This document shows, piece by piece, positions 1 through 50,314 of a DNA stretch of 64,000 nucleotides. Position 1 is the first letter of the stretch; each line of letters starts with the position of its first letter. The stretch lies in NCBI RefSeq assembly GCF_058153355.1, contig NZ_CM177019.1; one strand, 5' to 3'. The position numbers were made by a program, and so were the translations under genes. The notes under the pieces are model-generated. The model was not told where the DNA came from. It did not search any database and was given only the letters and a program-made list of their open reading frames with translations.

Positions 1-143
1 CCGTAGCGCAGCAAAATGCCGCGTTCACCTTCATTAACGGTGTAATACGAGAGAAATGGCAGCACAACCACGGTAAGCACGCCAATGGCGATAGCAATAG
101 ATTTTTGTGGGCGAAATGAGGTTATTGAAACAGGTGCTTTCAT
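1..143 (-). CDS. SPFH/band-7 (HflC/HflK-like) membrane protein, N-terminal fragment; gene runs off the window start
   Basis: ATG at 141-143 on minus strand with AAGGAAG Shine-Dalgarno upstream; translation MKAPVSITSFRPQKSIAIAIGVLTVVVLPFLSYYTVNEGERGILLRY shows a TM helix followed by the YTVxEGERG motif typical of SPFH N-termini. Not in the ORF track because it is truncated. Confidence 0.45.
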   Translation of the reverse strand, partial: MKAPVSITSFRPQKSIAIAIGVLTVVVLPFLSYYTVNEGERGILLRY

Positions 144-517
144 GAGAATCTTCCTTGAGTAAAGTGTGGGAATATGTCACATGAGGTGAGGAGAAAACAG
201 CCAACAGGTGAGAATTCAGAATCTATAAAGGGGGAGAGCGAAAAACATCGGCTAAAAAAGTATGTTTTCGAACATTCAATAGATAAATAGAGATATGCAT
301 CACAAATACATAGGCAGATAAAACATTGGTTTTGTGATAAACATAACAAACACAAACTTGACTTTATAAGTATAAATTTCATGTTGTTGTTATTTAACAT
401 TTTATTATTTTGGTTCATGTTTTTTTTCTTCTCGCGTGCCAATTGCTTTCATTAAATCGCACGAGTATTTTATTTTTACCGCCGGACGGTACCCTAAAAA
501 TAAAATAAGGATAATTT
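144..517. promoter_or_regulatory. AT-rich divergent intergenic/promoter region upstream of cmtB
   Basis: Very AT-rich tract with homopolymer runs between two divergent gene starts; typical of nucleoid-protein-bound promoter DNA. The 100-aa ORF here (140..442 minus) is low-complexity. Confidence 0.4.
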
Positions 518-961
518 ATGCGGCTTATTGATTATTTTCCAGAATCATCAATCTCAGTTATACATTCAGCAAAAGACTGGCAGGAAGTTATCGATTTTTC
601 GATGGCATCATTGCTGGATAAAAACTATATCAGTGAGAATTACATTCAGGCTATTAAAGATTCCACCATTAACAATGGCCCTTATTATATTCTCGCACCA
701 GGCGTGGCAATGCCTCATGCGCGACCGGAATGTGGGGCGCTTAAAACCGGGATGTCTTTGACGTTACTTAAACAAGGCGTTTATTTTCCGGGGAATGACG
801 AACCGATTAAATTACTTATCGGTCTTTCTGCTGCCGATGCCGATTCGCACATTGGCGCTATTCAGGCGTTAAGTGAATTGCTGTGCGAAGAAGAAATACT
901 TGAACAACTCTTAACTGCAACATCAGAAAAACAATTAGCGGACATTATCAGCCGCGAATAA
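518..961 (+). CDS. cmtB: PTS mannitol-like enzyme IIA component
   Basis: 147-aa ORF; sequence recognised as CmtB (IIA-Mtl family); immediately followed by the IICB gene. Confidence 0.9.
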   Translation: MRLIDYFPESSISVIHSAKDWQEVIDFSMASLLDKNYISENYIQAIKDSTINNGPYYILAPGVAMPHARPECGALKTGMSLTLLKQGVYFPGNDEPIKLLIGLSAADADSHIGAIQALSELLCEEEILEQLLTATSEKQLADIISRE

Positions 962-988
962 TGACTCTCTCCTCTACAGGATAATATT

Positions 989-2377
989 ATGGAAAACAAG
1001 TCTGCTCGTGCAAAGGTCCAGGCTTTTGGGGGCTTTTTGACGGCAATGGTCATCCCCAATATTGGTGCTTTTATTGCCTGGGGTTTTATTACTGCATTAT
1101 TTATTCCTACTGGTTGGCTGCCTAACGAACATTTCGCCAAAATTGTCGGCCCGATGATTACCTATTTATTGCCCGTAATGATTGGTTCTACCGGTGGCCA
1201 TTTAGTCGGCGGTAAACGCGGCGCAGTCATGGGCGGAATAGGGACAATTGGTGTAATCGTCGGCGCAGAAATCCCGATGTTCCTTGGTTCAATGATCATG
1301 GGACCGTTAGGTGGGCTGGTCATAAAATATGTCGATAAGGCACTGGAAAAACGCATACCTGCTGGTTTTGAGATGGTTATCAATAACTTCTCATTAGGTA
1401 TCACCGGGATGCTCCTTTGTCTGCTGGGTTTTGAAGTTATCGGCCCGGCGGTGTTAATTGCCAATACTTTCGTCAAAGAGTGTATTGAGGCGCTGGTACA
1501 TGCGGGCTATCTGCCTTTGCTGTCAGTCATCAATGAACCGGCGAAAGTGCTTTTCCTCAATAACGCGATAGATCAGGGCGTCTATTACCCGTTGGGGATG
1601 CAACAGGCTTCAGTTAACGGTAAATCCATCTTCTTTATGGTGGCGTCCAACCCTGGGCCTGGCTTAGGACTGTTGCTGGCGTTTACTTTGTTTGGTAAAG
1701 GGATGAGTAAACGTTCTGCGCCCGGGGCGATGATTATTCACTTCCTCGGTGGGATCCACGAACTGTATTTCCCGTATGTGCTGATGAAGCCGCTGACCAT
1801 TATTGCCATGATTGCGGGCGGTATGTCTGGCACCTGGATGTTTAACTTACTGGACGGTGGTCTGGTGGCTGGCCCAAGTCCAGGCTCTATCTTTGCGTAC
1901 CTGGCACTGACGCCGAAAGGCTCATTCCTGGCGACAATTGCCGGTGTTACGGTAGGTACCCTGGTGTCCTTTGCTATCACTTCCGTAATACTGAAGATGG
2001 AAAAAACGGTGGAAACGGAGAGCGAAGATGAGTTTGTGCAGTCCGCCAATGCGGTTAAGGCGATGAAACAAGAAGGTACATTCTCGTTAAGCCGGGTTAA
2101 GCGTATCGCCTTTGTTTGCGATGCGGGAATGGGCTCCAGCGCGATGGGCGCAACCACCTTCCGTAAGCGCCTGGAAAAAGCGGGGCTGGCAATAGAAGTA
2201 AAACATTACGCGATAGAAAACGTGCCTGCGGATGTGGATATCGTCGTTACTCACGCTAGTCTGGAAGGGCGCGTGAAACGTGTGACGGATAAACCGCTGA
2301 TATTGATTAATAACTATATTGGCGATCCCAAACTCGACACTTTATTTAATCAATTAACCGCTGAACATAAAAACTGA
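989..2377 (+). CDS. cmtA: PTS mannitol-like enzyme IICB component
   Basis: 462-aa ORF with polytopic membrane N-terminus and C-terminal IIB domain; recognised as CmtA. Confidence 0.9.
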   Translation: MENKSARAKVQAFGGFLTAMVIPNIGAFIAWGFITALFIPTGWLPNEHFAKIVGPMITYLLPVMIGSTGGHLVGGKRGAVMGGIGTIGVIVGAEIPMFLGSMIMGPLGGLVIKYVDKALEKRIPAGFEMVINNFSLGITGMLLCLLGFEVIGPAVLIANTFVKECIEALVHAGYLPLLSVINEPAKVLFLNNAIDQGVYYPLGMQQASVNGKSIFFMVASNPGPGLGLLLAFTLFGKGMSKRSAPGAMIIHFLGGIHELYFPYVLMKPLTIIAMIAGGMSGTWMFNLLDGGLVAGPSPGSIFAYLALTPKGSFLATIAGVTVGTLVSFAITSVILKMEKTVETESEDEFVQSANAVKAMKQEGTFSLSRVKRIAFVCDAGMGSSAMGATTFRKRLEKAGLAIEVKHYAIENVPADVDIVVTHASLEGRVKRVTDKPLILINNYIGDPKLDTLFNQLTAEHKN

Positions 2378-2391
2378 TTGCCGAGGTAAAA

Positions 2392-3669
2392 ATGAAAACC
2401 AAAGTTGCTGCTATTTATGGCAAGCGGGATGTCCGTCTGCGCGAATTTGAACTGCCCGAAATTACCGATAATGAACTGCTGGTGAGTGTAATTTCTGACA
2501 GCGTGTGTTTATCGACCTGGAAAGCGGCGTTACTCGGTAGCGAACATAAACGGGTGCCCGACGATTTAGAAAATCATCCGGTCATTACCGGACATGAATG
2601 TGCCGGGATTATTGTTGAAGTGGGGAAAAATCTCACCGACAAATATAAAAAAGGCCAACGTTTTGTATTGCAACCGGCGATGGGGCTACCAAGCGGATAT
2701 TCAGCGGGATACAGCTACGAATATTTTGGCGGTAATGCTACCTATATGATTATTCCAGAGGTAGCCATTAATTTGGGCTGCGTATTACCGTATCACGGAT
2801 CTTATTTTGCTGCGGCGTCGCTGGCAGAGCCTATGTGCTGCATTATTGGCGCTTATCATGCCAATTATCACACCACGCAATATGTTTATGAGCATCGCAT
2901 GGGCGTCAAACCTGGCGGCAATATTGCGCTGCTGGCGTGTGCGGGCCCGATGGGGATAGGCGCTATCGATTACGCTATTCACGGCGGCATACAACCGTCG
3001 CGGGTAGTGGTGGTCGATATCGACGAAAAACGCCTGGCACAGGTGCAGAAGCTGCTGCCGGTGGAGCTGGCGGCCAGCAAAGGCATTGAGCTGATATATG
3101 TGAATACCAAAGGAATGAGCGACCCAGTCCAGAGGCTGCGGGCGCTGACAGGAGATGCCGGATTCGATGACATTTTTGTTTATGCGGCGGTGCCTGCTGT
3201 CGTTGAGATGGCTGACGAATTACTGGCGGAAGATGGCTGCCTGAACTTCTTTGCCGGGCCGACGGATAAAAACTTCAAAGTGCCGTTTAATTTCTACAAC
3301 GTCCATTACAACAGCACGCACGTTGTCGGTACATCCGGTGGTTCAACGGACGATATGAAAGAGGCGATTGCCCTGAGCGCCACGGGGCAGTTGCAACCGT
3401 CGTTTATGGTGACGCATATCGGTGGCCTGGATGCAGTGCCAGAAACCGTTCTCAATTTACCGGATATCCCCGGTGGTAAAAAACTCATTTACAACGGCGT
3501 TACCATGCCGCTCACCGCCATTGCCGATTTTGCCGAAAAAGGCAAAACCGATCCGCTGTTTAAAGAGCTTGCGCGGCTGGTTGAGGAAACGCACGGCATC
3601 TGGAATGAACAGGCCGAGAAATATCTGCTGGCGCAATTTGGCGTTGATATCGGGGAGGCCGCGCAATGA
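2392..3669 (+). CDS. yggP: zinc-type alcohol dehydrogenase-like protein
   Basis: 425-aa ORF, GHE-C-x-G and Rossmann GxGxxG motifs; K-12 YggP length. Confidence 0.85.
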   Translation: MKTKVAAIYGKRDVRLREFELPEITDNELLVSVISDSVCLSTWKAALLGSEHKRVPDDLENHPVITGHECAGIIVEVGKNLTDKYKKGQRFVLQPAMGLPSGYSAGYSYEYFGGNATYMIIPEVAINLGCVLPYHGSYFAAASLAEPMCCIIGAYHANYHTTQYVYEHRMGVKPGGNIALLACAGPMGIGAIDYAIHGGIQPSRVVVVDIDEKRLAQVQKLLPVELAASKGIELIYVNTKGMSDPVQRLRALTGDAGFDDIFVYAAVPAVVEMADELLAEDGCLNFFAGPTDKNFKVPFNFYNVHYNSTHVVGTSGGSTDDMKEAIALSATGQLQPSFMVTHIGGLDAVPETVLNLPDIPGGKKLIYNGVTMPLTAIADFAEKGKTDPLFKELARLVEETHGIWNEQAEKYLLAQFGVDIGEAAQ

Positions 3670-4631
3670 TGTCCCTGGCGTGGCCATTATTTCGCGTTAC
3701 GGAGCAGGCAGCGTTGGCTGCCTGGCCGCAAACCGGATGTGGCAACAAAAATAAAATTGATGGCCTGGCGGTCACCGCGATGCGCCAGGCATTAAACGAT
3801 GTCGCTTTTCGTGGGCGAGTGGTCATCGGCGAGGGAGAAATTGACCATGCGCCGATGCTGTGGATTGGCGAAGAGGTGGGCAAAGGCGATGGGCCAGAAG
3901 TCGATATCGCGGTTGATCCCATTGAAGGTACGCGGATGGTGGCGATGGGGCAGAGCAATGCGCTGGCGGTCATGGCTTTCGCCCCTCGAGATAGCCTGTT
4001 ACACGCGCCCGATATGTATATGAAAAAACTGGTTGTTAATCGGCTGGCGGCGGGCGCGATTGATCTGTCTTTGCCTCTGGCGGACAACTTGCGCAACGTG
4101 GCGAAAGCGTTAGGCAAACCGCTGGACAAGCTGCGTATGGTTACGCTGGATAAACCGCGCCTGAGTGCCGCAATTGAGGAAGCGACGCAACTGGGCGTGA
4201 AGGTTTTTGCCCTGCCGGATGGCGATGTCGCCGCCAGCGTGCTGACCTGCTGGCAGGATAATCCTTACGATGTGATGTACACCATCGGCGGTGCGCCAGA
4301 AGGTGTGATTTCTGCCTGTGCCGTTAAAGCATTAGGCGGGGATATGCAGGCCGAGCTGATTGACTTTTGTCAGGCCAAAGGGGATTACACGGAAAATCGG
4401 CAGATTGCAGAGCAGGAACGCCAGCGTTGCAAGGCAATGGGCGTTGACGTTAACCGTGTGTACTCGCTCGATGAACTGGTGAGGGGGAACGATATCCTCT
4501 TTAGCGCTACGGGCGTGACGGGCGGTGAGTTGGTGAACGGTATCCAACAGACGGCGAATGGGGTGCGGACGCAGACATTACTGATCGGCGGCGCGGACCA
4601 AACGTGTAATATAATAGACTCCCTGCATTGA
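3666..4631 (+). CDS. yggF: fructose-1,6-bisphosphatase class II (GlpX paralogue)
   Basis: 321-aa ORF overlapping yggP stop by 4 bp; GlpX-like sequence. Confidence 0.85.
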   Translation: MMSLAWPLFRVTEQAALAAWPQTGCGNKNKIDGLAVTAMRQALNDVAFRGRVVIGEGEIDHAPMLWIGEEVGKGDGPEVDIAVDPIEGTRMVAMGQSNALAVMAFAPRDSLLHAPDMYMKKLVVNRLAAGAIDLSLPLADNLRNVAKALGKPLDKLRMVTLDKPRLSAAIEEATQLGVKVFALPDGDVAASVLTCWQDNPYDVMYTIGGAPEGVISACAVKALGGDMQAELIDFCQAKGDYTENRQIAEQERQRCKAMGVDVNRVYSLDELVRGNDILFSATGVTGGELVNGIQQTANGVRTQTLLIGGADQTCNIIDSLH

Positions 4632-4652
4632 TGGTGATCTATCGGAAGACCA

Positions 4653-5162
4653 ATGGCGACGCTGACAGAAGATGATGTGCTTGAGCAACTGGATGCACAG
4701 GACAATTTATTTTCATTTATGAAAACTGCGCATTCTATTTTGCTCCAGGGGATACGCCAGTTTCTGCCGTCGCTGTTTGTCGATAACGATGAAGAGATCG
4801 TGGAATATGCAGTGAAGCCGTTACTCGCTCAAAGCGGCCCGCTTGACGATATTGATGTTGCGCTACGTTTGATTTTTGCACTGGGGAAAATGGACAAATG
4901 GCTGTACGCCGATATCACGCACTTTTCCCAGTTCTGGCATTACCTGAATGAACAGGATGAAACGCCCGGATTTGCCGATGACATGACCTGGGATTTTATC
5001 AGCAACGTCAATAGTATAACCCGCAATGCGACGCTCTATGACGCGTTGAAAGCGATGAAGTTCGCCGATTTCGCCGTCTGGTCAGAGGTGCGTTTTAGTG
5101 GGATGGTCAAAACGGCGCTGACGCTGGCAGTAACGACCACCTTAAAGGAATTAACGCCGTGA
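4653..5162 (+). CDS. yggD: MtlR-like transcriptional regulator
   Basis: 169-aa ORF; recognised as YggD. Confidence 0.8.
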   Translation: MATLTEDDVLEQLDAQDNLFSFMKTAHSILLQGIRQFLPSLFVDNDEEIVEYAVKPLLAQSGPLDDIDVALRLIFALGKMDKWLYADITHFSQFWHYLNEQDETPGFADDMTWDFISNVNSITRNATLYDALKAMKFADFAVWSEVRFSGMVKTALTLAVTTTLKELTP

Positions 5163-5872
5163 AAATCGAACTGACGGTGAATGGATTGAAGGTACAGGCG
5201 CAGTACCCGAACGAAGAGATTGAAAATGTGCATAAACCGTTGCTGCGTATGCTGGCAGCCTTACAGACGGTAAATCCGCAGCGGCGTACCGTGGTTTTTC
5301 TTTGCGCTCCGCCGGGGACGGGTAAATCTACCCTAACCACCTTCTGGGAATATCTCGCGCAACAAGACCCGGAACTACCCGCTATTCAGACGCTGCCGAT
5401 GGATGGTTTTCATCATTACAATAGCTGGCTGGATGCGCATCAATTGCGCCCCTTCAAAGGCGCACCAGAGACATTTGACGTTGCGAAACTGGCGGAAAAT
5501 CTGCGCCAGGTAATGGAAGGGGATTGTACGTGGCCGCAGTACGATCGACAAAAGCATGATCCTGTTGAAGATGCGTTGCACGTTACCGCACCACTCGTCA
5601 TCGTCGAAGGAAACTGGTTGTTGCTGGACGACGAGAAGTGGCGGGCGTTGGCATCGTTCTGCGATTTTTCTGTTTTTATTCATGCCCCCGTTCATATTCT
5701 GCGGGAACGCTTGATTAGTCGTAAAATTGCGGGGGGATTATCGCGGGATGAAGCCGAAGCTTTTTATGCCCGAACCGATGGTCCCAATGTCGAGCGTGTG
5801 CTGCTGAATAGTTGTCAGGCCAATCTGATATTAGAGATGACGGAAGAAGGCAGGTATCACTTCATAAGCTGA
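5159..5872 (+). CDS. yggC: P-loop nucleoside/pantothenate kinase-like protein
   Basis: 237-aa ORF with Walker A motif GTGKST; overlaps yggD stop by 4 bp. Confidence 0.8.
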   Translation: MKIELTVNGLKVQAQYPNEEIENVHKPLLRMLAALQTVNPQRRTVVFLCAPPGTGKSTLTTFWEYLAQQDPELPAIQTLPMDGFHHYNSWLDAHQLRPFKGAPETFDVAKLAENLRQVMEGDCTWPQYDRQKHDPVEDALHVTAPLVIVEGNWLLLDDEKWRALASFCDFSVFIHAPVHILRERLISRKIAGGLSRDEAEAFYARTDGPNVERVLLNSCQANLILEMTEEGRYHFIS

Positions 5873-6156
5873 CAATTTATTCCAGTTATTGCGTGGTTAT
5901 TATTACGCCAGTCTGGAATAAAGCCTCCTGCAAGAAGGGAAGAAAGTGTGATGCAAGTCAGATAATTGTCTTCTTTGACTGGACAATCATTCCTTTTATT
6001 CCACGTTTCGCTTATCCTAGCTGAAGCGTTTCAGTCGATTAAATGTTCGACAATTAACCAATCAGTCGCAGTTTGCGACAGGTAAGGTTTCCCCGGACGA
6101 TTTGCTGGATTACTCTGTCTGGCAAATTTGCTCAGGGAAAACCTTGCAGGAGATCT

Positions 6157-7176
6157 ATGACCGTACGCGTAGCGATAAATGGCTTCGGTCGCATCGGGCG
6201 TAATGTGGTTCGTGCTTTGTATGAATCCGGACGCCGGGCGGAAATTACCGTGGTGGCAATCAACGAACTGGCGGATGCTGCCGGCATGGCGCATTTGTTG
6301 AAATATGACACCAGTCATGGCCGTTTTGCATGGGAAGTACGACAGGAACGCGATCAACTTTTTGTTGGTGATGACGCCATCCGCGTATTGCACGAACGTT
6401 CACTGCAATCGCTCCCATGGCGTGAACTTGGCGTCGATGTGGTTCTCGACTGCACCGGCGTATATGGCTCCCGCGAGCATGGCGAAGCGCATATTGCCGC
6501 CGGGGCTAAAAAAGTGCTCTTTTCACATCCTGGCAGTAACGATCTCGATGCGACCGTGGTTTACGGCGTCAATCAGGATCAACTTCGTGCGGAACACCGC
6601 ATCGTTTCTAACGCTTCCTGTACCACGAATTGCATAATTCCCGTCATCAAATTGTTAGATGATGCGTACGGTATTGAGTCCGGCACTGTGACCACAATTC
6701 ACTCCGCCATGCACGATCAACAGGTTATTGATGCATATCATCCTGACCTGCGTCGCACCCGGGCAGCCAGCCAGTCGATCATTCCAGTCGATACTAAACT
6801 GGCCGCCGGTATCACACGATTTTTTCCGCAATTTAACGATCGCTTTGAAGCAATTGCGGTGCGTGTACCAACCATAAATGTGACGGCAATCGATTTAAGC
6901 GTGACGGTGAAGAAACCTGTAAAAGCCAATGAAGTCAACCTGTTGCTGCAAAAAGCAGCACAAGGTGCATTTCATGGTATAGTTGACTATACGGAATTGC
7001 CGTTGGTCTCTGTAGATTTTAACCACGATCCGCACAGTGCCATTGTCGATGGCACCCAAACCCGGGTCAGTGGCGCACACCTGATCAAAACGTTGGTCTG
7101 GTGCGATAACGAATGGGGCTTTGCTAACCGAATGCTCGACACGACGTTAGCTATGGCTACTGTTGCTTTCAGGTAA
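6157..7176 (+). CDS. epd: D-erythrose-4-phosphate dehydrogenase
   Basis: Start set at ATG 6157 ([15 protein letters not shown]); 339 aa; GAPDH-family with SCTTNC active-site motif. Confidence 0.92.
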
Positions 7177-7225
7177 GACGCAAGCAGCGTCTGCAAAACT
7201 TTTAGAATCAACGAGAGGATTCACC

Positions 7226-8389
7226 ATGTCTGTAATTAAGATGACCGATCTGGATCTTGCTGGGAAACGTGTATTTATCCGTGCGGATCTGAACGTACCA
7301 GTAAAAGACGGGAAAGTAACCAGCGATGCGCGTATCCGTGCTTCTCTGCCGACCATCGAACTGGCCCTGAAACAAGGCGCAAAAGTGATGGTAACTTCCC
7401 ACCTGGGTCGTCCTACCGAAGGCGAGTACAACGAAGAATTCTCTCTGCTGCCGGTTGTTAACTACCTGAAAGACAAACTGTCTAACCCGGTTCGTCTGGT
7501 TAAAGATTACCTCGACGGCGTTGACGTTGCTGAAGGTGAACTGGTTGTTCTGGAAAACGTTCGCTTCAACAAAGGCGAGAAGAAAGACGACGAAACCCTG
7601 TCCAAAAAATATGCTGCACTGTGTGACGTGTTCGTAATGGACGCATTCGGTACTGCTCACCGCGCGCAGGCTTCTACTCACGGTATCGGTAAATTCGCTG
7701 ATGTTGCGTGCGCAGGCCCGCTGCTGGCAGCTGAACTGGACGCGCTGGGTAAAGCACTGAAAGAACCTGCTCGCCCGATGGTGGCTATCGTTGGTGGTTC
7801 TAAAGTATCTACCAAACTGACCGTTCTGGATTCCCTGTCCAAAATCGCTGACCAGCTGATCGTGGGTGGTGGTATCGCTAACACCTTTATCGCGGCACAA
7901 GGCCACGATGTGGGTAAATCCCTGTACGAAGCTGACCTGGTTGACGAAGCAAAACGTCTGCTGACCACCTGCAACATTCCGGTTCCGTCTGACGTTCGCG
8001 TAGCAACTGAGTTCTCTGAAACTGCACCGGCTACCCTGAAATCTGTTAACGATGTGAAAGCTGACGAGCAGATCCTGGATATCGGCGATGCTTCTGCGCA
8101 GGAACTGGCTGAAATCCTGAAGAATGCGAAAACCATTCTGTGGAACGGCCCGGTTGGCGTGTTCGAATTCCCGAACTTCCGCAAAGGTACTGAAATCGTG
8201 GCTAACGCTATCGCAGACAGCGAAGCGTTCTCCATCGCTGGTGGCGGTGACACTCTGGCAGCAATCGACCTGTTCGGCATTGCTGACAAAATCTCCTACA
8301 TCTCCACTGGCGGCGGCGCATTCCTCGAATTCGTGGAAGGTAAAGTACTGCCTGCAGTAGCGATGCTCGAAGAGCGCGCTAAGAAGTAA
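7226..8389 (+). CDS. pgk: phosphoglycerate kinase
   Basis: Start at ATG 7226 ([16 protein letters not shown]); 387 aa; canonical Pgk sequence. Confidence 0.95.
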
Positions 8390-8452
8390 AAAATCACAGG
8401 GCAGGGAAACCTGCCCTTGTTGCAGCGCGCTTTTAGAGCACGCATTTTTTCA

Positions 8453-8577
8453 TACTCTAAATAATTCGAGTTGCAGGAAGGCGACAAGAGAGTGAATCCC
8501 CAGGAGCTTACATAAGTAAGTGACTGGGGTGAGCGAACGCAGACGCAGCACATGCAACTTGAAGTATGACGAGTATA
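8453..8577. repeat. ERIC (enterobacterial repetitive intergenic consensus) element, copy 1
   Basis: About 125 bp in the pgk-fbaA intergenic region containing GTGAATCCCCAGGAGCTTACATAAGTAAGTGACTGGGGTGAGCG; near-identical inverted copy at 21763-21887. Confidence 0.85.
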
Positions 8578-8603
8578 AGGCCCGACGATACAGGACAAGA
8601 GAC

Positions 8604-9683
8604 ATGTCTAAGATTTTTGATTTCGTAAAACCTGGCGTAATCACTGGTGATGACGTACAGAAAGTTTTCCAGGTAGCAAAAGAAAACAACTTCGCACTGC
8701 CAGCAGTAAACTGCGTCGGTACTGACTCCATCAACGCCGTACTGGAAACCGCTGCTAAAGTTAAAGCGCCGGTTATCGTTCAGTTCTCCAACGGTGGTGC
8801 TTCCTTTATCGCTGGTAAAGGCGTGAAATCTGACGTTCCGCAGGGTGCTGCTATCCTGGGTGCGATCTCTGGTGCGCATCACGTTCACCAGATGGCTGAA
8901 CACTATGGTGTTCCAGTTATCCTGCACACCGACCACTGCGCGAAAAAACTGCTGCCGTGGATCGACGGTCTGCTGGACGCGGGTGAAAAACACTTCGCAG
9001 CTACCGGTAAGCCGCTGTTCTCTTCTCACATGATCGACCTGTCTGAAGAATCTCTGCAAGAGAACATCGAAATCTGCTCTAAATACCTGGAGCGTATGTC
9101 CAAAATCGGCATGACTCTGGAAATCGAACTGGGTTGCACCGGTGGTGAAGAAGACGGCGTGGACAACAGCCACATGGACGCTTCTGCACTGTACACCCAG
9201 CCGGAAGACGTTGATTACGCATACACCGAGCTGAGCAAAATCAGCCCGCGCTTCACCATCGCAGCGTCCTTCGGTAACGTACACGGCGTATACAAGCCGG
9301 GTAACGTTGTTCTGACTCCGACCATCCTGCGTGACTCTCAGGAATATGTTTCTAAGAAACACAACCTGCCGCACAACAGCCTGAACTTCGTATTCCACGG
9401 CGGTTCCGGTTCTACTGCTCAGGAAATCAAAGACTCCGTAAGCTACGGCGTAGTGAAAATGAACATCGATACCGATACCCAATGGGCAACCTGGGAAGGT
9501 GTTCTGAACTACTACAAAGCGAACGAAGCTTATCTGCAGGGTCAGTTGGGCAACCCGAAAGGCGAAGATCAGCCGAACAAGAAATACTACGATCCGCGCG
9601 TATGGCTGCGTGCCGGTCAGACTTCGATGATCGCTCGTCTGGAAAAAGCATTCCAGGAACTGAACGCGATCGACGTTCTGTAA
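8604..9683 (+). CDS. fbaA: fructose-bisphosphate aldolase class II
   Basis: Start at ATG 8604 (MSKIFDFVKPGV); 359 aa; the longer ORF-track start at 8520 lies inside the ERIC repeat. Confidence 0.95.
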   Translation: MSKIFDFVKPGVITGDDVQKVFQVAKENNFALPAVNCVGTDSINAVLETAAKVKAPVIVQFSNGGASFIAGKGVKSDVPQGAAILGAISGAHHVHQMAEHYGVPVILHTDHCAKKLLPWIDGLLDAGEKHFAATGKPLFSSHMIDLSEESLQENIEICSKYLERMSKIGMTLEIELGCTGGEEDGVDNSHMDASALYTQPEDVDYAYTELSKISPRFTIAASFGNVHGVYKPGNVVLTPTILRDSQEYVSKKHNLPHNSLNFVFHGGSGSTAQEIKDSVSYGVVKMNIDTDTQWATWEGVLNYYKANEAYLQGQLGNPKGEDQPNKKYYDPRVWLRAGQTSMIARLEKAFQELNAIDVL

Positions 9684-9747: not shown

Positions 9748-10996
<1,249 letters not shown>

Positions 10997-11026
10997 CATG
11001 CCTGCAATCTGGGAAACCGGGGTAGA

Positions 11027-11060
<34 letters not shown>

Positions 11061-21762: not shown

Positions 21763-21887
21763 TATACTCGTCATACTTCAAGTTGCATGTGCTGCGTCTG
21801 CGTTCGCTCACCCCAGTCACTTACTTCTGTAAGCTCCTGGGGATTCACTCTCTTGTCGCCTCCCTGCAACTCGAATTATTTAGAGTA
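21763..21887. repeat. ERIC element, copy 2 (inverted relative to copy 1)
   Basis: Reverse complement matches 8453-8577 with about 3 mismatches. Confidence 0.85.
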
Positions 21888-21925
21888 TAATGCGAGTGAA
21901 ATTTCATACCACAGGCGAAACGATC

Positions 21926-38745: not shown

Positions 38746-38776
<31 letters not shown>

Positions 38777-38806
38777 TCTACCCCGGTTTCCCAGATTGCA
38801 GGCATG

Positions 38807-40190
<1,384 letters not shown>

Positions 40191-48888: not shown

Positions 48889-50314
48889 TAATGCCAGTCA
48901 GTTAAGCAACTGACTGGCTCTTTTTCGGGGCTGTGGGGTATTTCCAGGGCCTCTCCTTTACCACTCTCGGGAAGGCCCTTTCCCTTCTTGTCGGTAATTT
49001 CACAAGTTGTCCCATACTTGCAAGATCGCGCATCAGCTCCGGTATACGTCCCGGTGAAGCGCCCTGCAATGTCATCAGCATTCTCATCACCATTCCGCAT
49101 GATTCTGAGAAACTCAGTTGATTCGGCCAGTAACCTTTCAGATGTTCCGCCATTTTAATCATCTGATATCTCACCAGATTATAAGCCAGTAAGACACCCC
49201 ACAGCTCTTGCTCCACAAGCTCCGGCTTTTTACTTCTCAGCGTCAGCCTGCTCAGTTGCATCGTCTGTTTTATCTCCCTGTATCCCAGTTCGATTTCCCA
49301 GCGATGACTGTACAGATCCGCCATTTCTCCTCCGGGGAAGCGCATGGCGTCCGTCATCGACGTCAGCAGATGGCAGACTTTTCCTTTGCGCGTCACGGTC
49401 AGCAGGCGGGCTGTCACTTCATTTCCCAGTCCCGGCCACTTTTTTCGTGCCTGCGGGCTGGTTTTCAGCTTCACCAGATGATCGCCTTTACCCAGTTTTC
49501 TGATCTCTTCATATTGCGCTCCCTTTCTGAGAGGTATCATCCAGTGGCGGTGTTCTCCCGCCAGGCTCCAGGCATTTAACAGTCCCAGTGAGTAATAACC
49601 TTTATCCATTAACGTCAGAGTGTTATCGCCGGTTTGTTCTATAAGTTGCTCAGCAAGCTCATTTTCGCTGTTCTTCATCGTGCCGAAGGCTGCAGCCGTC
49701 AGCAGATGGCTGGTCAGTTCCATCTGGCAGACCATTTTGACCTGCGGGTAGAGCGCCGGGTTCCCGGCATGTGTCTGGCGGGGGAAGGCTGCATCGTTCT
49801 CTGGTGTATCCGGTGTGCGCCAGAACACACCATCGATGGCCAGCAGGGTCAGGCCGCACCAGTGCGGATGCGGCGTGGCGTTATGCCAGAGCTGCGCTGT
49901 TTTCGTGAACACGCGGCGGACAGCCTCACTTCCCAGGCGCTGGCGGGCCTGAATAACGGCACTGGGGGCAACGAAGGGGCGATTGCCCGGCAGCATGATG
50001 TCCAGGCGATTCACAATCTGGTGAAGAGGTTCTTTACGCTCAAGCGCCATGCCAACAATACACCAGACCATCATTTCGAGGGGAAGACGGCGCTTGCGTA
50101 GCGTTACAGTACCTGATTCGGCAAGGCAACGAGAGATGAGTTCGGGGTCGAGGTAATCCCCCAGAGAAGTCAGTGGGTTACGCAGAGAATCGTAACGGGA
50201 TACCAGATCAAGAGCCTGTCCAATGTGCATAAAAAAATCCGGAAACAAGTGAGCGTTTCCGGATTCTTACACAGCCACTGGATCGGTCAACTGATCCTTA
50301 ACTGATCGGCATTA
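48889..50314 (-). mobile_element. IS4 insertion sequence
   Basis: 1426 bp; 18-bp imperfect terminal inverted repeats TAATGCCAGTCAGTTAAG (48889-48906) and CTTAACTGATCGGCATTA (50297-50314); flanked by 12-bp direct repeat CGGCAAATGTCG at 48877-48888 and 50315-50326. Confidence 0.92.
48902..50230 (-). CDS. insG: IS4 transposase
   Basis: Start at ATG 50230 ([14 protein letters not shown]); 442 aa; the ORF-track start at 50248 is not ATG. Confidence 0.9.

Follow-up and report, generated by a model that had tools for sequence, protein, structure and literature searches.

What lies upstream of the cmtBA operon in a genome whose gene order here departs from that of Escherichia coli K-12, and which of the two arrangements is the older? 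The stretch of DNA that we analysed (the window, 64,000 nucleotides) opens within this interval. Expecting the K-12 order, in which tktA stands next to cmtB, the initial annotation had read the N-terminus of an SPFH/band-7 gene on the opposite strand, together with an AT-rich spacer of about 370 bp, as a strain-specific insertion or replacement. This K-12 order proved correct, with K-12 tkt ending 313 bp upstream of cmtB and nothing annotated in those 313 bp. Translation of the minus strand of the window from 143 to 1 gives MKAPVSITSFRPQKSIAIAIGVLTVVVLPFLSYYTVNEGERGILLRY, the N-terminus of a 302-aa protein that RefSeq names 'prohibitin family protein' in the matching genomes. Only 47 of its 302 codons fall inside the window, the remaining ~766 nt lying upstream of the window start. 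The spacer at 144-517 measures 374 bp with 32.4% GC, as compared with 51.4% for the whole window, and the ORF list holds no convincing ORF within it. The features on which the following argument draws are these:

1-143, minus strand: first 47 codons of the SPFH/Band-7 gene, from translation, with an ATG start codon at 143-141; the ORF leaves the window at its start.
144-252, unstranded: SPFH-proximal spacer, presumably leader and promoter of the SPFH gene; without a K-12 counterpart in the spacer alignment described below (A1).
253-436, unstranded: fast-evolving, AT-rich, cmtB-distal spacer, delimited by the block identities of A1.
333-348, plus strand: CRP-like site TGTGATAAACATAACA, a consensus match with at most one mismatch.
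437-517, plus strand: conserved cmtB leader with ribosome-binding site, common to K-12 (97.6% against K-12-type genomes); right edge of the polymorphic segment.
518-961, plus strand: cmtB (PTS mannitol-type IIA), from the ORF list and the annotation of matching genomes; divergent from the SPFH gene.
989-2377, plus strand: cmtA (PTS IICB), from the ORF list and annotation; flank context.

The complete genomes closest to the window are R32_14_1F (99.8% identity over 1-517) and 24A16CRGN010, from which we infer that the SPFH gene is intact in the source strain. In R32_14_1F, the nearest carrier, the gene is 909 bp long and sits between tkt and cmtB, convergent with the former and divergent from the latter. 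Over positions 1-9000, identity to the complete E. coli genomes (5,426) peaked at 98.7%, eight of them exceeded 98% and the next-best listed stood at 96.1%; against K-12 the window is 96-97.4% identical over ~54 kb. Judged by these identities, the window is from a rare, deep-branching E. coli lineage (the source may be either deep-branching or cryptic). Because this lineage is rare and deep-branching, the SPFH-spacer allele of the window is rare too, with at least 99% identity in only 11 of 5,400 best matches.

The encoded protein is a member of the SPFH/Band 7 superfamily. Residues 35-210 align with positions 2-176 of the 176-position Pfam profile PF01145 (Band_7/SPFH) at 105.8 bits, against a gathering cut-off of 23.6 (E 3.4e-30), which bears out the initial reading of the window start. 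An AlphaFold2 monomer model built on 37 homologues (pLDDT 82) has an N-terminal membrane helix at residues 12-32, an alpha/beta domain at 33-181 and a long helix at 183-269, and Foldseek matched it in the PDB to HflC, erlin1/2, PHB1/2, stomatin and QmcA (E 5e-17 to 6e-12). By sequence, the matches among solved structures were HflC (E 4e-14), HflK (E 1e-10), QmcA (E 5e-7), prohibitin 1 (E 1.8e-5) and stomatin. Orthology with HflK or HflC was considered and rejected, the scores for the NCBIfam HflC/HflK models TIGR01932, TIGR01933, NF008259 and NF008181 all lying far below the equivalog cut-offs (60.8 against 134.4 bits for HflC, 37.7 against 159.4 for HflK, and 53.3 against 427 and 34.9 against 660 for the other two comparisons). 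Three K/R residues precede the N-terminal helix and the net charge after it is 0, a distribution that, under the positive-inside rule, suggests an N-in topology that would place the SPFH domain on the periplasmic side, like that of HflK/C and prohibitins. By analogy with these relatives, the protein probably assembles into an oligomeric cage anchored in the membrane.

Lying between tkt and cmtB, the gene is monocistronic and has no NfeD partner. When 80 homologous loci of gamma- and alpha-proteobacteria were compared, no neighbour proved conserved, no family being common to more than 11 of the 80 and synteny being lineage-local only; antisense ORFs that appeared 'conserved' at these loci were discarded as artefacts of the Ala/Glu-rich repeat.

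The window shows no more than 143 nt of the gene, and such an N-terminal fragment might be taken for a pseudogene relic or an assembly error. That can hardly be right, however, given that at least 80% of the 909-bp gene is present in 1,818 complete genomes, where it is annotated as an intact CDS, that the closest genomes hold the full ORF, and that dN/dS ranges from 0.007 to 0.041 in 21 pairs among seven Escherichia alleles. All eight alleles examined are intact. On the strength of these ratios, the SPFH gene is under strong purifying selection where present.

The arrangement is not strain-specific, as the initial annotation had supposed. When window positions 1-517 were searched by megablast against the 5,426 complete E. 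coli genomes, 1,822 of these matched over 80% or more of the query, the feature under the match being annotated 'prohibitin family protein', while the remaining genomes, among them K-12 derivatives, BL21 and O157:H7, matched 437-517 only, at ~97.6%. Reciprocal searches found the 909-bp gene in 1,830 of the 5,426 genomes and the K-12-specific 231 bp in 3,595, which together account for 5,425 of 5,426. Carriers include O25b:H4-ST131, VR50, an O145 strain and the ETEC strain TW10598; non-carriers include K-12, BL21, O157:H7 and O103:H2. As far as these alignments allow us to judge, the tkt-cmtB interval in E. coli is present as two old haplotypes, one SPFH-plus (about one third of genomes, the window included) and the other SPFH-minus (the K-12 type).

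The two haplotypes differ between sharp borders. In all carriers tested by pairwise BLAST, the edges of the difference were the tkt stop codon and a point 81 bp upstream of cmtB, and K-12 is without the sequence of window positions 1-436 at this place, its similarity beginning at 437 (megablast), so that the contrast with K-12 that had first drawn attention to the locus stood. The polymorphic segment is ~230 bp long in K-12 and ~1.2-1.4 kb in carriers; it is therefore a replacement and no clean insertion into an empty site. Of the two events that the initial annotation had offered, replacement thus fits the borders, whereas insertion does not, K-12 having no empty site.

To describe the segment more closely, we aligned the spacers of seven carrier alleles with that of K-12 (alignment A1) and took identities by block. 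Columns 1-64 are gapped in the K-12 row. Columns 65-116 (~50 bp) hold K-12's own tkt terminator hairpin segment, which is 31-35% identical to carriers and whose hairpin is unrelated to the carriers' GGGCCGCGAAAGCGGCCC hairpin. Over columns 117-304, K-12 shares ~52% identity with each carrier, which puts it at the distance of the E. albertii spacer, and this similarity exceeds that of shuffled controls (z 4.8-7.4 in global alignment); the K-12 spacer and the carriers' cmtB-proximal spacer are thus remotely homologous. Even among the carrier alleles of E. coli, the variable block (window positions 253-436) is only 72-86% identical. In the last 78 columns (305-382), K-12 is 92-99% identical to E. 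coli and cryptic-clade carriers, as against 65% to E. albertii. On the other side of the interval, in sequence beyond the window, the final ~500 nt of tkt (L001:10500-11015 and equivalents) are 93-96% identical between K-12 and carriers, compared with ~98% in upstream tkt, so diversity rises beside the polymorphic interval. Strain TW10598 combines the SPFH gene with a cmtB 100% identical to that of K-12, and recombination therefore shuffles the tkt-cmtB interval. In some genomes cmtB is itself unusually diverged, at 86-90% aa identity to K-12.

Which state came first was addressed with a protein scan that used the SPFH protein as query and one genome per species. The scan returned orthologues with 95-99% aa identity in E. 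whittamii, Escherichia sp. MOD1-EC7003, E. albertii and the E. coli representative, orthologues with ~85% aa identity in Pseudocitrobacter, and farther homologues, at 50-60%, in Shewanella, Pseudomonas, Cellvibrio, Yersinia, Brucella/Ochrobactrum and Rhizobium. With K-12 proteins as tblastn queries, the gene order glpX-yggP-cmtA-cmtB / SPFH / tkt-loiP-speB was found in all four Escherichia species, and two Pseudocitrobacter genomes had the order SPFH / tkt-loiP, with the SPFH gene convergent with tkt and no cmt operon. Presence in the same slot across Escherichia, together with adjacency to tkt in Pseudocitrobacter, argues that presence predates E. coli. Most likely, to judge from this synteny, the SPFH gene already stood beside tkt in the Escherichia ancestor and the K-12-type haplotype is secondarily gene-less, so that the polarity implied at the outset, a gain in this strain, is most likely the reverse of what happened, the same tkt-cmtB slot being filled in other Escherichia species. 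Taken as a whole, the data are best explained by an old SPFH-plus/minus dimorphism with presence ancestral, a stand-alone SPFH membrane protein and a shared divergent promoter spacer, an account that we consider likely to be right.

The opposite polarity would have the SPFH gene horizontally inserted into the tkt-cmtB spacer of the carriers' ancestor, with K-12 keeping the original order. The gene is indeed missing from two thirds of E. coli genomes and patchy in Enterobacteriaceae outside Escherichia, E. fergusonii, E. marmotae and E. ruysiae had no orthologue among the matches of the species scan, and lateral transfer has been reported for SPFH families and subfamilies (PMC2636767). If the three species without a scan match lack the gene, ancestral presence needs several losses or a polymorphism older than the species. 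Such a gain nevertheless seems improbable to us, since four Escherichia species have the gene at one and the same position and Pseudocitrobacter has it next to tkt, and since its divergence between species is that of its neighbours: in pairs with another Escherichia species or a divergent E. coli representative, dS is 0.25-0.45 for the SPFH gene and 0.28-0.63 for cmtB and cmtA. Its GC content (48.5%, against 51.4% for the window) is native, and the carriers' interval shows no IS, integrase, tRNA or target duplication at its borders and no flanking direct repeats besides REP-type hairpins. Nor is the K-12 interval an 'empty site': ~50 bp of it are private to K-12, and its spacer differs from that of the carriers by 48%. 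A mobile island or horizontally acquired islet was likewise rejected as a candidate, in view of the missing mobility signature, the near-native GC and the gene standing at this very place in three further Escherichia species.

If presence is ancestral, the K-12 state has to be accounted for. On the alignment evidence it cannot be a simple recent deletion, because its terminator is private and its spacer only ~52% identical to that of any carrier; either an old in-situ deletion followed by fast spacer evolution, or allelic replacement from a diverged relative, would produce it. In the latter case, which shares the polarity of the preferred account and differs from it solely in how the K-12 state arose, the SPFH-minus haplotype would have been imported by homologous recombination from a diverged, gene-less relative, the crossovers falling towards the 3' end of tkt and shortly before cmtB. 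The private hairpin, a K-12 spacer that equals the E. albertii one in its distance from E. coli carriers, the sharp switch to 99% identity at window base 437, the lowered identity in the last ~500 nt of tkt and the K-12-identical cmtB beside the SPFH gene in TW10598 all speak for such an import. No donor was identified, however, and with a spacer so hypervariable among the carriers themselves, an old in-situ deletion with fast local evolution could look alike; we thus see the import as a serious but somewhat unlikely route.

The AT-rich spacer had been taken to suggest a strain-specific insertion or replacement, but the remotely homologous K-12 spacer is equally AT-rich (32.9% GC). Such AT-richness reflects a promoter-rich intergenic region and is no evidence of foreign origin. 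In carriers, this spacer would act as a divergent promoter region common to the SPFH gene and the cmt operon, with the CRP-like site serving cmt. That site (333-348) is one of three matches with at most one mismatch in the 64 kb, where 1.8 are expected by chance; its TGTGA half-site falls in the same A1 column in most rows and has a degenerate form in K-12. In K-12, cmtB has been reported to have a CRP-activated promoter (PMC3105977), and we regard 333-348 as a candidate activator site for the cmtBA promoter. A scan of positions 1-700 for sigma-70 promoters and intrinsic terminators returned none (shuffled sequences give 2.8 and 0.6 matches), and a comparison of 1-1200 with Rfam, E values up to 1 being admitted, gave a chance-level match only (SpF10, 20 bits against a gathering score of 60). 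A palindrome in the cmtB leader (~466-508) was dismissed, as it folds no better than shuffles (z 0.05).

Repeats and insertion sequences have left their own marks on the interval. Between tkt and the SPFH gene of R32_14_1F (L001:11036-11231), a REP-like palindrome pair is flanked by two identical 22-bp terminator hairpins, AAGGGCCGCGAAAGCGGCCCTT, whereas the gap at this place in the carriers L086 and L088 is 45 bp long and contains one hairpin; from its layout, the R32_14_1F repeat looks like a BIME-type insertion that duplicated the hairpin. IS1 landed independently in the AT-rich spacer of two strains (L086:3465-4162 and L087:3109-3806). In TW10598 an IS1 lies between the SPFH gene and cmtB, and strain A30 has an IS1 plus a deletion of cmtB and the 5' end of cmtA.

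Elsewhere the region differs from K-12 in several further respects. An insertion sequence of ~1.28 kb, which we take to resemble IS621, is present in two copies (~9775-11052 on the plus strand and ~38751-40028 on the minus strand) that encode an identical 326-aa IS110-type transposase, and both copies are missing from K-12 at the fbaA-mscS and trhA-ygfZ intervals. Between lysS and idi (~48889-50314, minus strand), the window has ~1.4 kb extra relative to K-12 with a 448-aa ORF, presumably an IS4-family transposase. A 126-bp segment at 21763-21888 is 98% identical, in inverted orientation, to a stretch across the K-12 pgk-fbaA intergenic region (L083 8268-8393) and, from this similarity, resembles a dispersed intergenic repeat. 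In R32_14_1F, a cluster of five genes separates yggC from epd (L001:17845-20921) and encodes an ECF transporter (S, T and two ATPase components) and a PPC-domain protein, and a 732-bp hypothetical gene stands between speA and speB (L001:5995-6726). K-12 is without either of these; the window is without the ECF cluster, and the speA-speB interval lies beyond it.

How the protein might act can be sketched from the gene arrangement and from its better-known relatives. The SPFH gene runs convergently with tktA, the two having a terminator hairpin in common, and divergently from the cmtBA operon. Its product would be anchored in the inner membrane by the N-terminal transmembrane helix and would assemble, through the SPFH domain and the long C-terminal helix, into an oligomeric ring or cage around a patch of membrane; this cage might restrict, organise or shield client membrane proteins, the FtsH protease possibly among them. 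The usual count of four SPFH proteins for E. coli derives from K-12. It is a rather doubtful suggestion, although one we think should be stated, that about one third of strains, pandemic ST131 among them, have retained a fifth SPFH protein, prohibitin-like, stand-alone and strongly constrained, whose ancient haplotype has been segregating against a gene-less one since before E. coli diversified and is perhaps maintained by selection. Were the dimorphism so maintained, for instance because a second cage facing the periplasm modulates FtsH or other envelope clients in certain niches, nature would here have set up an on/off experiment on bacterial prohibitin function. In many clinical lineages, a fifth prohibitin-like paralogue could mask or modify hflKC, qmcA and yqiK phenotypes. 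In P. aeruginosa, deletion of accessory SPFH genes gave little or no phenotype (PMC13086221).

The gene is already known, in that it is annotated in more than 1,800 complete RefSeq genomes, and it is a routine accessory-gene difference from K-12; a search of the literature for 'prohibitin family protein' in E. coli and for a tktA-cmtB prohibitin found nothing specific to this gene. The value of the present analysis lies in correcting the direction of inference, with K-12 most likely being the derived, gene-less state, and in treating the AT-richness of a spacer as no proof of foreign DNA.

Set beside the characterized SPFH systems, the protein shares features with each. The hflKC genes form a core E. 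coli operon, and the cage that HflK and HflC build modulates FtsH. HflC ranks first by sequence and also by fold (7vhq_G, E 5e-17), and the N-terminal transmembrane helix is a further likeness, as is the periplasmic orientation suggested by the charges of the SPFH protein. Unlike HflK/HflC, however, the SPFH protein is encoded by one gene with no pair, at a different locus, and has no known FtsH interaction. QmcA (YbbK) and YqiK are the other two K-12 SPFH proteins beside HflK and HflC. QmcA (YbbK)/YbbJ and YqiK belong to the same superfamily, and QmcA is matched at the fold level (E 6e-12), but its sequence similarity is weak (E 5e-7) and the qmcA and yqiK genes sit with an NfeD-type partner, which the SPFH gene lacks. 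Human PHB1/PHB2 are matched by fold at E ~1e-14. The p-prohibitins (SPFH4; Hinderhofer et al. 2009, PMC2636767) resemble the protein in being ~300 aa long, with an N-terminal anchor, an SPFH domain and a long Ala/Glu-rich helix, in being encoded by a single gene without an NfeD partner, and in the RefSeq name 'prohibitin family protein'; in sequence, it departs from them by scoring HflC (4e-14) and HflK (1e-10) above prohibitin 1 (1.8e-5), the fold-level scores being about equal. Genomes that encode both an SPFH4 protein and HflK/C are reportedly uncommon, a tendency with exceptions (PMC2636767). The stand-alone gene fits the p-prohibitin (SPFH4) class.

As a polymorphism, the locus is in most respects like the ordinary presence/absence differences of E. 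coli: a single gene at a fixed chromosomal site, in ~34% of genomes, with core-gene flanks and with alleles shuffled by recombination, as in TW10598. It is unlike ordinary accessory-gene polymorphisms in that both haplotypes are unusually old, their spacers being ~50% diverged, and unlike a recent strain-specific island in that the gene-bearing state is common to other Escherichia species.
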